Positions 34,217-55,940 of a stretch of DNA of 64,000 nt are shown here, one piece after another (positions within the stretch are counted from its first letter, which is position 1; each line of letters starts with the position of its first letter). Under the pieces are notes generated by a model that searched no databases, was not told the DNA's origin, and saw only the letters and a list, made by a program, of their open reading frames with translations. A program made the position numbers and the translations under genes. Location of the stretch: the NCBI RefSeq assembly GCF_988243305.1, contig NZ_OZ547136.1. The stretch is one strand, 5' to 3'.

Positions 34217-34221
34217 GAACG

Positions 34222-34253
34222 AAAAAGGCCGCAGAGTTTCACCCCTGCGGCCT
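34222..34253 (-). terminator. Intrinsic terminator of ldr copy 1 (ggccgcag / ctgcggcc followed by U-run on the minus strand)
   Basis: 8-bp GC stem with a TTTTT run on the minus strand, about 50 bp 3' of the ldr stop. Confidence 0.7.
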
Positions 34254-34302
34254 GGTCCGGGCGCAAATTGCCATTACGGCAGCCTGACGCCCGCATGACA
34301 CG

Positions 34303-34410
34303 TTACTTCCGCTTATTCAGCGAGTTCACGATCAGACTGGCAAGAATGCCAGCAATGACCGGAGCCGCTAAATCATGCCAGAAGGCCATGCCCAGTTCTG
34401 CGAGCGTCAT
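34303..34410 (-). CDS. ldr: Type I toxin Ldr, 35 aa (copy 1, MTLAELGMAFWHDLAAPVIAGILASLIVNSLNKRK)
   Basis: Last 35 codons of ORF 34303..34545 from the internal ATG at 34410; matches the Ldr small membrane toxin family; carries Ser in place of Trp at residue 30. Confidence 0.85.
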   Translation of the reverse strand: MTLAELGMAFWHDLAAPVIAGILASLIVNSLNKRK

Positions 34411-34458
34411 ATAGCCGCCTCTGTTGTAATGACAACGTTTCGCGGCTATTCTTGAGTT

Positions 34459-34522
34459 GTTTGGGTTCAAGATTAGCCCCCGTGATGTTGTCAGGTGCAT
34501 ACCTGCAATATGCGGGGGTTTT
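34459..34522 (+). ncRNA. rdl: Rdl antisense RNA (antitoxin) of ldr copy 1, approximate ends
   Basis: Plus-strand stem-loop agcccccg...cgggggtttt (intrinsic terminator) antisense to the ldr leader; 5' end inferred from the recalled RdlD sequence. Confidence 0.5.
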
Positions 34523-34704
34523 CTCTCTCCAGCAACCAATGCCACTAGGGATTAAGCCCCCGCAACATTGCGCCTCACCGGAACCCTTCCGGCTTGCCGC
34601 TGATTCTACGGCCATTTTTGTTCGTCGAAATCCATCACTTCTTCACTCTGTGCTGCGCATTCCGCAGAATATTATCCGCTTGCAACCGTTGCATTTTTCT
34701 TACG

Positions 34705-34736
34705 AAAAAGGCCGCAGAGTTTTATCCCTGCGGCCT
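34705..34736 (-). terminator. Intrinsic terminator of ldr copy 2
   Basis: Same hairpin plus U-run as in unit 1, shifted by 483 bp. Confidence 0.7.
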
Positions 34737-34785
34737 GATCCGGGCGCAAATTGCCATTACGGCAGCCTGACGCCCGTCTGACACG

Positions 34786-34893
34786 TTACTTCCGCTTGTT
34801 CAGCCAGTTCACGATCAGACTGGCAAGAATGCCAGCAATGACCGGAGCCGCTAAATCATGCCAGAAGGCCATGCCCAGCTCTGCGAGCGTCAT
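34786..34893 (-). CDS. ldr: Type I toxin Ldr, 35 aa (copy 2, ...ILASLIVNWLNKRK)
   Basis: Last 35 codons of ORF 34786..35061 from the internal ATG at 34893. Confidence 0.85.
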   Translation of the reverse strand: MTLAELGMAFWHDLAAPVIAGILASLIVNWLNKRK

Positions 34894-34941
34894 ATAGCCG
34901 CCTGAGTTGTAATGACAACGTTTCGCGGCTATTCTTGTATT

Positions 34942-35005
34942 GTTTGGATGCAAGAATGGCCCCCGTGGTGTTGTCAGGTGCATACCTGCAACGTGCGGGG
35001 GTTTT
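34942..35005 (+). ncRNA. rdl: Rdl antisense RNA of ldr copy 2, approximate ends
   Basis: Plus-strand gcccccgtggtgttgtcaggtgcatacctgcaacgtgcgggggtttt stem-loop and terminator; the 5' part differs from copies 1 and 3. Confidence 0.45.
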
Positions 35006-35187
35006 CTCTCTCCAGCAACCAATGCCACCAGGGATAAAGCCCCCGCAACATTGCGCCTCACCGGAACCTTTCCGGCTTGCCGCTGATTCTACGACTGTTT
35101 TTCTGCTCCGGAATCCGTCACTTCTTCACTCTGTGCTGTGCATTCCGCAGAATATTATCCGCTTGCAACCGTTGCATTTTTCTTACG

Positions 35188-35219
35188 AAAAAGGCCGCAG
35201 AGTTTTATCCCTGCGGCCT
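35188..35219 (-). terminator. Intrinsic terminator of ldr copy 3
   Basis: Same hairpin plus U-run, shifted by 966 bp from unit 1. Confidence 0.7.
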
Positions 35220-35268
35220 GATCCGGACGCAACTTGCCATTACGGCAGCCTGACGCCCGTCTGACACG

Positions 35269-35376
35269 TTACTTCCGCTTATTCAGCCAATTCACGATCA
35301 TGCTGGCAAGAATGCCAGCAATGACCGGAGCCGCTAAATCATGCCAGAAGGCCATGCCCAGTTCTGCGAGCGTCAT
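35269..35376 (-). CDS. ldr: Type I toxin Ldr, 35 aa (copy 3, ...ILASMIVNWLNKRK)
   Basis: Last 35 codons of ORF 35269..35511 from the internal ATG at 35376. Confidence 0.85.
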   Translation of the reverse strand: MTLAELGMAFWHDLAAPVIAGILASMIVNWLNKRK

Positions 35377-35424
35377 ATAGCCGCCTGTGTTGTAATGACA
35401 ACGTTTCGCGGCTATTCTTGAGTG

Positions 35425-35488
35425 GTCTAGGTTCAAGATTAGCCCCCGTGATGTTGTCAGGTGCATACCTGCAACGTGCGGGGGTTTT
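35425..35488 (+). ncRNA. rdl: Rdl antisense RNA of ldr copy 3, approximate ends
   Basis: gtctaggttcaagattagcccccg...cgggggtttt on the plus strand; best match to the RdlD sequence as I recall it. Confidence 0.5.
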
Positions 35489-35851
35489 CTCTCTCCAGCA
35501 ACCAATGCCACCAGGGATTAAGCCCCCGCAACATTGCGCCTCACCGGAACCTTTCCGGCTTGCCGCTGATTTTACGATTGCTTTTTACCGTCAGCACCCG
35601 GCAATCTTCCTCATTGCGCGATGCCTTCCAGCTTAATTTCTTTATTTGCAATAGTTGCAGTTCATATCCGAGCTGACTCCAGACTGGTAGTGAAATGCGC
35701 AATTTTGTAGAATTGCGCCTCCTCGCGACCTCCCCAGTGAATCTGTTGCCTCATTTTTTACATACTGCGTATTCGACTTCTCCACCTGTTGCGCAAGAGA
35801 AACTGGGTTTATTCATTTTTGCGAGGCCGACTTCTTTCTGGACAGGACTTT

Positions 35852-43460: not shown

Positions 43461-43560
43461 GAATTTGGTCGGTGCCAGAGGATTACTCGCCACTTCGTGG
43501 CTCGCCCTGCGGGCCGTTGCTGGCGCAACGTTCTCTCGCTTCGCTCGAGTCGAACCTCCC
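43461..43560 (-). other. tRNA-Pro-like 3' fragment (pseudo-tRNA remnant) with an approximately 60-nt insertion
   Basis: In proK orientation the segment reads ...ggaggttcga-[about 63 nt]-atcctctggcaccgaccaaattc, matching the proK T-arm and acceptor 3' end plus 6 flanking bases (ggaggttcgaatcctctatcaccgaccaaattc). Confidence 0.4.
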
Positions 43561-43597
43561 TGCCCCCGGAGGTTCTCATCCTCATAGGCTACAAATG

Positions 43598-43630
43598 CAA
43601 AAAAGCCTGCTCGTTGAGCAGGCTTTTCGA
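43598..43630 (-). terminator. proK intrinsic terminator (agcctgctc gttg agcaggct, U-run on the minus strand)
   Basis: 9/8-bp GC-rich stem followed by TTTTTT directly 3' of the tRNA. Confidence 0.85.
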
Positions 43631-43633
43631 ATT

Positions 43634-43710
<77 letters not shown>

Positions 43711-54495: not shown

Positions 54496-54786
54496 ATGGA
54501 ATATAAAGATCCAATGCATGAGCTGTTGAGCAGCCTGGAACAGATTGTTTTTAAAGATGAAACGCAGAAAATTACCCTGACGCACAGAACAACATCCTGT
54601 ACCGAAATTGAGCAGTTACGAAAAGGGACAGGATTAAAAATCGATGATTTCGCCCGGGTTTTGGGCGTATCAGTCGCCATGGTAAAGGAATGGGAATCCA
54701 GACGCGTGAAGCCTTCAAGTGCCGAACTAAAATTGATGCGTTTGATTCAAGCCAACCCGGCATTAAGTAAGCAGTTGATGGAATAG
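54496..54786 (+). CDS. yiaG: XRE-family HTH transcriptional regulator, 96 aa
   Basis: ORF track; HTH segment LRKGTGLKIDDFARVLGVSVAMVKEWE. Confidence 0.93.
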   Translation: MEYKDPMHELLSSLEQIVFKDETQKITLTHRTTSCTEIEQLRKGTGLKIDDFARVLGVSVAMVKEWESRRVKPSSAELKLMRLIQANPALSKQLME

Positions 54787-54870
54787 ACTTTTATCCACTT
54801 TATTGCTGTTTACGGTCCTGATGACAGGACCGTTTTCCAACCGATTAATCATAAATATGAAAAATAATTG

Positions 54871-54907
54871 TTGCATCACCCGCCAATGCGTGGCTTAATG
54901 CACATCA
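54871..54907 (+). promoter_or_regulatory. cspA promoter (-35 TTGCAT, -10 CTTAAT, AT-rich UP element upstream)
   Basis: Hexamers with 17-bp spacing ending about 8 bp before the inferred transcription start at 54908. Confidence 0.65.
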
Positions 54908-55066
54908 ACGGTTTGACGTACAGACCATTAAAGCAGTGTAGTAAGGCAAGTCCCTTCAAGAGTTATCGTTGATACCCCTCGTAGTGCACATTCCTTTAAC
55001 GCTTCAAAATCTGTAAAGCACGCCATATCGCCGAAAGGCACACTTAATTATTAAAGGTAATACACT
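54908..55066 (+). promoter_or_regulatory. cspA 159-nt 5' UTR (RNA thermosensor) including the cold box TGACGTACAGA at 54914..54924
   Basis: Cold-box sequence present near the 5' end of the leader; long untranslated leader before the cspA Shine-Dalgarno. Confidence 0.75.
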
Positions 55067-55279
55067 ATGTCCGGTAAAATGACTGGTATCGTAAAATGGT
55101 TCAACGCTGACAAAGGCTTCGGCTTCATCACTCCTGACGATGGCTCTAAAGACGTGTTCGTACACTTCTCTGCTATCCAGAACGATGGTTACAAATCTCT
55201 GGACGAAGGTCAGAAAGTGTCCTTCACCATCGAAAGCGGCGCTAAAGGCCCGGCAGCTGGTAACGTAACCAGCCTGTAA
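55067..55279 (+). CDS. cspA: Major cold-shock protein CspA, 70 aa
   Basis: ORF track; RNP1 KGFGFI and RNP2 VFVHF motifs; exact recognition of [34 protein letters not shown]... Confidence 0.98.
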
Positions 55280-55306
55280 TCTCTGCTTAAAAGCACAGAA
55301 TCTAAG

Positions 55307-55335
55307 ATCCCTGCCATTTGGCGGGGATTTTTTTA
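55307..55335 (+). terminator. cspA intrinsic terminator (atccctgcc attt ggcggggat followed by TTTTTTT)
   Basis: GC-rich hairpin plus T7 run 28 bp after the cspA stop. Confidence 0.9.
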
Positions 55336-55466
55336 TTTGTTTTTCAGGAAATAAATAATCGATCGCGTAATAAAATCTATTATTATTTTTGTGAAAAATA
55401 AATTTGGGTGCAATGAGAATGCGCAACGCCGTAAGAAAGGCGGGAATAACTTCCCGCCGAAGACTC

Positions 55467-55619
55467 TTACTCTTTCAAATTGCAGGCTAAAAATGCCGCC
55501 AGCTCATAACTCCCCTGTTTAATATGCAATTCACACAGTGAATCTCTTATCATCCAGGTGAAAAATAAAAGCGTGCAACAAATCACTATTAAAGAAAGTA
55601 ATCTATATTTCTGCGGCAT
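55467..55619 (-). CDS. hokA: Type I toxin HokA (Hok/Gef family small membrane toxin), 50 aa
   Basis: Internal ATG of ORF 55467..55679 with AGGAGG Shine-Dalgarno 6 nt upstream; MPQKYRLLSLIVICCTLLFFTWMIRDSLCELHIKQGSYELAAFLACNLKE. Confidence 0.88.
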   Translation of the reverse strand: MPQKYRLLSLIVICCTLLFFTWMIRDSLCELHIKQGSYELAAFLACNLKE

Positions 55620-55940
55620 TCCCAGCCTCCTGTGTTGATTTCCAACGAGTAAGAGGCTAACCTTATGGTGTTCAGGCATAGGGTAGCCTCACTTTGATTT
55701 ATAGTCAGGTGGGGCTTTTCTCTGTCTGCCTTTCGGTGAATACCTGAGACAAACAGTCTCAAGCACCCGCAGCTATTCTAGCTTAATAAGTTCGTTTCTT
55801 CTCCTTGATATAATCCTAAAAAAATCTCATAAAATTAATATATGAGACAATCTTTATTCAGCAGAAGATTATTAAAGGTTGCTCTATTATTTAGCGATAA
55901 AAAAGCCTGCCAGATGGCAGGCTTTTTAATAACGGCGTTA

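Follow-up and report, generated by a model that had tools for sequence, protein, structure and literature searches.

An intact Escherichia coli cspA promoter and cold-box leader, identical to the K-12 control region

The stretch of DNA that we analysed (64,000 nucleotides of contig NZ_OZ547136.1, RefSeq assembly GCF_988243305.1; hereafter the window) carries yiaG, cspA, hokA and glyS in the same order as E. coli K-12. The cspA transcription unit and its control elements are as follows.

54846-54870, + strand: AT-rich UP-element region directly 5′ of the -35 hexamer, 88% A+T against 48% for the window
54871-54876, + strand: -35 hexamer TTGCAT
54891-54899, + strand: extended -10 element, consisting of TG (54891-54892), G and the hexamer CTTAAT (54894-54899)
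54908, + strand: predicted transcription start, +1 A (54907 under the 160-nt convention), 159 nt 5′ of the ATG at 55067
54907-55334, + strand: whole cspA mRNA, matching the Rfam cspA thermoregulator RF01766
54908-55066, + strand: cspA 5′ untranslated leader, 159 nt
54910-54926, + strand: cold-box hairpin GGUUUG-ACGUA-CAGACC
54914-54924, + strand: cold box TGACGTACAGA, 11 nt, +7 to +17 of the leader
55030-55042, + strand: upstream box GCCGAAAGGCACA, a GCC-GAAA-GGC hairpin, +123 to +135
55055-55058, + strand: Shine-Dalgarno sequence AAGG, 8 nt 5′ of the ATG
55067-55279, + strand: cspA coding sequence, 70 amino acids plus stop
55079-55093 (approximate limits), + strand: downstream-box region AUGACUGGUAUCGUA
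55304-55338, + strand: strong intrinsic terminator of cspA, placed at 55304-55331 by the terminator scan, with a 12-bp stem, a 4-nt loop and a T-run; final helix of RF01766

We aligned this region with that of K-12 MG1655 (NC_000913.3). The two were 100% identical between the stop codon of yiaG and the ATG of cspA, and over the 559 bases aligned as far as the terminator there was a single difference, a synonymous one in the coding sequence (position 55153, codon 29; GAC/GAT, C/T, between the window and K-12). Alignment with the cspA leader had been chosen beforehand as the check on the initial annotation, which described a cspA promoter and cold-box leader that were intact; it returned zero mismatches over the promoter and the 159-nt leader, with all hexamers, the cold box and the leader at the positions given for them. 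The encoded protein is identical to K-12 CspA (b3556) at 70/70 residues, the flanking genes are the same, and the mRNA matched all 428 positions of the RF01766 model without truncation, scoring 501 bits (E 2.6e-141) where the gathering threshold is 78. Apart from codon 29, the K-12 locus differs in that IS150 interrupts hokA/sokA there and not here. These results indicate that the stretch is almost certainly an ordinary, intact E. coli cspA control region, with promoter and long leader as in K-12. The sequence belongs to RF01766 and to the class of cold-inducible csp leaders, as the type example of both, and every sequence-level defining feature of these that we examined is present. The cspA promoter and leader found here are already known in full, and there is nothing new in the finding itself; its significance is little beyond annotation, namely that the cspA control region of this strain is wild-type, so that its cold-shock regulation should behave as in K-12.

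Such a copy is the norm in E. coli. The cspA locus (554 nt) was found in 5422 of 5426 complete genomes, with at least 99% identity in 5409 records. Over the 221 nt that span the UP element, promoter and leader, identity was at least 99% in 5402 of the complete genomes and 95-99% in a further 20.

Long leaders of 145-160 nt with a cold box and a downstream box have been described for cspA, cspB, cspG and cspI (PMC6719143), and we considered whether the locus might be another csp paralogue (cspE, or cspB, cspG or cspI), in which case its leader would not be the cspA thermosensor. RefSeq would seem to say so: most E. coli genomes there name the matched gene 'cspE: transcription antiterminator/RNA stability regulator CspE', and the protein, at 124 bits, does pass the cut-off of 120 set for the CspE equivalog model NF049933.1. 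However, the best NCBIfam model for the 70-residue product is NF007679 CspA, at 172 bits, the gene neighbourhood has the synteny of K-12 cspA, and there are substantial differences between the leader and its counterparts in cspB, cspG and cspI (69% mean column identity in a four-way alignment, with indels). Together with the K-12 alignment and the identity of the protein to CspA at every residue, the best-model result rules out a paralogue, a reading that we regard as exceedingly improbable. The RefSeq (PGAP) label likely arises because CspA passes the equivalog cut-off for CspE while its own model, NF007679, ranks only as 'subfamily'. The 'cspE' naming of cspA in most RefSeq E. coli genomes therefore looks like a systematic misnaming. 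What the K-12 cspB, cspG and cspI leaders have in common with that of cspA is a set of blocks: AAAATAA-TTGC, TG-N-GTTAAT or CTTAAT, and the downstream-box codons. In cspB and cspG these are joined by the cold-box block GGTTTGA..ACAGAC and the upstream-box block GCCGAAAGGC. Outside the common blocks the three diverge from cspA, and for K-12 cspI the alignment over the cold box is poor and the upstream-box loop is CAAG rather than a GNRA sequence.

With the gene identified as cspA, we examined its promoter. The TTGCAT and CTTAAT hexamers named in the initial annotation are present as listed above, separated by a 17-nt spacer, CACCCGCCAATGCGTGG, whose last three bases give the TGn of an extended -10; an 8-nt discriminator follows CTTAAT. 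This arrangement of -35 TTGCAT, 17-nt spacer, TGn and -10 CTTAAT is that of the E. coli cspA promoter, with exact identity to NC_000913.3. We take these hexamers, and the definition of the cold box used below, to be the published ones, going by secondary sources. The AT-rich UP element of the same annotation is also present, but it lies just upstream of position 54871 and not within the interval 54871-55066 to which it had been assigned. Lying directly upstream of the -35, it is a putative contact for the alpha C-terminal domain. An AT-rich UP element is assigned to cspA transcription in the title of Mitta et al. (1997), as cited in PMC6386945, and the UP element, cold box and downstream box of cspA are described in bioRxiv 10.1101/289264; according to this literature, cspA transcription requires the UP element.

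Both hexamers are weak matches to the consensus, at 3/6 for the -35 and 4/6 for the -10, which is without the A at position 2. Because of these low scores, a generic sigma-70 consensus scan of positions 54700-55500 reported no promoter. Weak hexamers and an empty scan are what would be seen if the motifs were chance matches in AT-rich intergenic DNA with no functional promoter. However, the characterised K-12 promoter has the identical sequence, and the composite TTGCAT-N17-CTTAAT occurs once in the window where 0.05 occurrences are expected.

Cross-species conservation also bears on this point. We scanned one genome per species with a pattern for the first 35 nt of the coding sequence in which third codon positions were left free. 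The pattern was confined to this segment, so the leader and promoter played no part in choosing the sequences; the downstream-box segment was fixed by it, and the set is uninformative on the conservation of that segment. The window and 43 orthologues with sufficient flanking sequence gave an alignment of 44 sequences, from Escherichia, Citrobacter, Salmonella, Klebsiella, Raoultella, Kluyvera, Pseudocitrobacter, Superficieibacter and other genera. TTGC of the -35 was invariant in 44/44, as were TG and TTAAT of the extended -10, and TTGC is also invariant in the cspB, cspG and cspI paralogues. The remaining -35 positions varied (TTGCAT in 22 sequences, TTGCTA in 10, TTGCTT in 9 and TTGCGT in 3), and the first base of the -10 was C only in Escherichia (6 sequences) and G in all others. 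Between these cores the spacer kept a length of 17 nt (18 in Kluyvera and Pseudocitrobacter) while drifting to only 36% identity with the window; a CCAAT motif within it (54883-54887), which is not kept even in E. albertii, was dropped as a candidate site. A fixed spacer length with drifting sequence between invariant hexamer cores is the signature to be expected of a real promoter. Upstream of the -35, 22 nt averaged 75% A+T across the 44 species; the sequence itself was not conserved, and a proximal A-tract of the AAAATAA type adjoined the -35 in most of them. This footprint, together with the pattern statistics and the identity to K-12, rules out chance occurrence, to which we give practically no credence. 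Our assignment of the cspA promoter is based on identity to a characterised promoter and on conservation between species, not on consensus strength, and the footprint makes a clean case of how the conservation of weak core hexamers can be strict where an UP element and a TG back them up. The sigma-70 RNA polymerase would use this promoter, with the weakness of TTGCAT and CTTAAT offset by the UP element, through contact with the alpha subunit, and by the extended -10 TG.

We infer a transcription start at 54907 or 54908, going by the leader length in the literature and by the first position of the RF01766 match, 54907; the cspA 5′ UTR is given as 159 nt, with a cold box, in PMC6719143 and as 160 nt in PMC6386945. 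With a start at either position, the mRNA would be about 428 nt long and its leader 159 or 160 nt.

The control elements are conserved across strains, paralogues and genera, and the leader shares in this. Across the 44 species its mean column identity was 0.86, with 70 of 159 columns invariant, compared with 0.91 at third codon positions and 0.55-0.64 in the spacer, discriminator and upstream flank. Its length, measured from the GGTTTG motif to the ATG, ranged from 153 to 162 nt. Within the leader, conservation was highest in the hairpin of the cold box (0.96) and in the upstream box (0.93), and the 11-nt cold box taken by itself scored 0.94. AAAGGTA, which contains the Shine-Dalgarno sequence, was invariant in 44/44. 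With its 159 nt at 54908-55066, the leader has the unusually long 5′ UTR (about 145-160 nt) of class I cold-shock csp genes. It also carries the cold box TGACGTACAGA near its 5′ end, at +7 to +17, which agrees with the earlier description of a cold box at the start of a 159-nt leader. The third feature of this class, the downstream box, is present as well: the AUGACUGGUAUCGUA region, with the pattern AAAATGACTGGT.T.GT.AAATGGTT, is invariant among cspA, cspB, cspG and cspI. The limits that we use for the cspA downstream box are approximate, and its pairing to 16S rRNA is a disputed model. The box sits within the first codons of cspA (PMC6719143, PMC6386945).

The window contains one exact copy of the cold box. 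The hairpin around it forms the first helix in the structure given by Rfam and appeared in minimum free energy (MFE) folds at every temperature tried. All six of its pairs were kept in 40/44 species; the closing pair was lost in the other four, and otherwise only the loop varied. Because the stem is without variation except at that closing pair, the comparison speaks neither for nor against the hairpin. At 54578-54588, within the coding sequence of yiaG and approximately 330 nt upstream of the real cold box, there is a copy with one mismatch, TGACGCACAGA, which is the same variant as in the Pseudocitrobacter cspA leader. With 0.58 one-mismatch matches expected per window, this copy is compatible with chance, and we did not treat it as meaningful.

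The upstream box varied in a more restricted way. Its stem was paired in 100% of the sequences, the sole change being from G-C to G-U, in 6 species, and its loop was GAAA in 35 sequences, GUAA in 7 and GCAA in 2. All of the loop variants fit GNRA, and the stem changes go only from G-C to G-U, which is why we considered a GNRA-type constraint: it is possible, although doubtful, that what is conserved in the box is a GCC-GNRA-GGC tetraloop hairpin and not a linear sequence. The upstream-box effect on translation was first proposed to be base-pairing to 16S rRNA; loops confined to GNRA hint instead at a structural role. If so, the box would not act by pairing to 16S rRNA, and its effect on translation would come about through a structural contact, with a tetraloop receptor within the mRNA, protein S1 or CspA as the partner. 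The restricted loop variation is the one mildly new observation here, a minor point that may already be implicit in published structure models. The name 'upstream box' and its numbering of +123 to +135 are reportedly those of Yamanaka, Mitta and Inouye (1999).

Structure in this mRNA extends beyond the leader. The Rfam structure pairs leader positions 26-70 with positions 192-229 of the coding sequence, so the structured unit is the whole mRNA and not the 5′ UTR alone. We mapped the Rfam consensus structure onto our sequence-based 44-species alignment, using as controls the same structure with pairing partners slid by 1-3 columns. Standard pairs filled 91% of the Rfam pair cells compared with 33-49% in the slid controls, a margin that is inflated because the structure was derived from the same family. 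The terminator helix was paired in 96.7% of cells, and a small hairpin at alignment columns 222-241 showed compensatory CG/GC and UA/CG changes. Over the 44 species, 8 pairs changed on both sides, which was not above shuffles (175 of 500). Covariation support is thin because the helices are nearly invariant among such similar sequences.

We also folded the RNA. The leader plus 30 nt showed no stability beyond that of shuffled sequence (z = -0.18). For the full mRNA, folded at 37, 25, 15 and 10 °C, the MFE structure changed between 25 and 15 °C; from 37 to 10 °C, equilibrium folding did not open the Shine-Dalgarno sequence or the AUG (the probability of being unpaired went from 0.29 to 0.23 for the former and was 0.01 for the latter). 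The published cold form is thus not reproduced by thermodynamics alone. This neither confirms nor contradicts the published work, because the cold form described there is set during transcription at low temperature.

These data qualify one part of the initial annotation, which referred to the known thermosensing 5′ UTR. The match to the known leader stands, as the RF01766 score attests, but the 5′ UTR alone is not the thermosensor: according to published work, in which the cspA mRNA is described as a thermosensor (PMC9947658, PMC6386945), and to the Rfam model, that role belongs to the whole mRNA of about 428 nt with its pairing between leader and coding sequence. One could go further and hold that the 5′ UTR does not itself sense temperature, that cold induction is mainly a matter of temperature-dependent decay (by RNase E and others) and of CspA acting in trans, and that the UTR is a stability and translation element and no thermometer. 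The folding results lean this way, with a leader of unremarkable structure and a ribosome-binding site that temperature did not open, as does the inclusion of the coding region in both the Rfam model and the published structures. So do reports that pre-existing cspA mRNA is stabilised 100-fold after the shift and that CspA stimulates the 37 °C form, aiding ribosome progress on it (PMC9947658), and that RNase E cleaves the mRNA rapidly (PMC2948425). However, probing has revealed distinct cold and 37 °C conformers, the cold form exposing the Shine-Dalgarno sequence in a loop, whereas in the 37 °C form this sequence and the AUG are partly occluded and 30S binding is approximately 2.5-fold weaker (PMC9947658, citing Giuliodori 2010). 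Purified K-12 cspA mRNA transcribed at 15 °C is already reported to differ from that transcribed at 37 °C in Shine-Dalgarno accessibility and translation, in a reconstituted system free of RNases and CspA. Moreover, decay, CspA and thermosensor mechanisms can act together, so that the difference is one of emphasis within a known system and leaves the sequence identity unaffected. We therefore consider an account by decay and CspA unlikely, and retain the whole mRNA as the thermosensor.

Thermosensing, an mRNA that is unstable at 37 °C and the functions of the UP element and the cold box can be carried over to this strain from published work on the identical K-12 sequence, which suggests the following course. 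At 37 °C the mRNA would be very unstable, with a half-life of approximately 12 s as compared with approximately 20 min after a shift to the cold (PMC9947658), and its fold would partly occlude the Shine-Dalgarno sequence and AUG. After the shift, existing mRNA would be stabilised approximately 100-fold. Molecules made in the cold would adopt the alternative fold with an exposed ribosome-binding site, leading to preferential translation of CspA. The upstream-box hairpin and the first codons, with the downstream box, would contribute to the efficiency of translation. The cold-box hairpin at the 5′ end would be a conserved element in mRNA stability and in the CspA-dependent shut-off of the response, in both of which the cold box was reportedly implicated by Jiang et al. 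in 1996, Bae et al. in 1997 and Fang et al. in 1998. As in classical RNA thermometers (ROSE, fourU and prfA), mRNA structure around the ribosome-binding site would tune translation by temperature. Those elements, however, melt on warming as an equilibrium zipper, whereas cspA, according to the literature, has a cold-favoured alternative fold that is set during transcription and takes in the whole mRNA. In line with this difference, equilibrium folding of the cspA mRNA gave no zipper-like response.

Several other features of the window deserve mention. Upstream of cspA, 25 nt past the yiaG stop codon, a hairpin of the form ACGGTCCTG-ATGA-CAGGACCGT followed by TTT (54812-54836) abuts the cspA UP region. 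This hairpin probably terminates yiaG transcription and insulates the promoter of cspA; with just four T's, it went unreported in our terminator scan. Its GGACCGTTTT arm is conserved in many genera. Downstream of cspA, the hokA toxin open reading frame and the sok antisense/mok region run uninterrupted (55467-55768, - strand), with a match to RF01794 of 124 bits at 55617-55768. In K-12, IS150 splits the hokA/sokA locus at the equivalent of about window position 55650, so this strain potentially has an intact toxin-antitoxin module right after cspA. Just downstream of cspA, on the strand opposite to hokA and overlapping its 3′ end, lies the position of ysaE (b4793), a tiny open reading frame annotated in K-12, at approximately 55418-55489 of the window. 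Further away, an RtT-like RNA (RF00391, 98.7 bits; 43466-43601, - strand) sits just downstream of the tRNA gene proK, tRNA-Pro(CGG) (43634-43710, - strand). RtT is best known from the tyrT operon, and the K-12 feature annotation of the corresponding proK stretch lacks it. The ldrD/rdlD toxin-antisense module at 34219-35586 consists of 2.8 tandem copies of a 483-bp unit with 93% matches, and rdlD has three full-length matches, at 34459, 34942 and 35425; K-12 has a single copy at this locus, between bcsG and yhjV.
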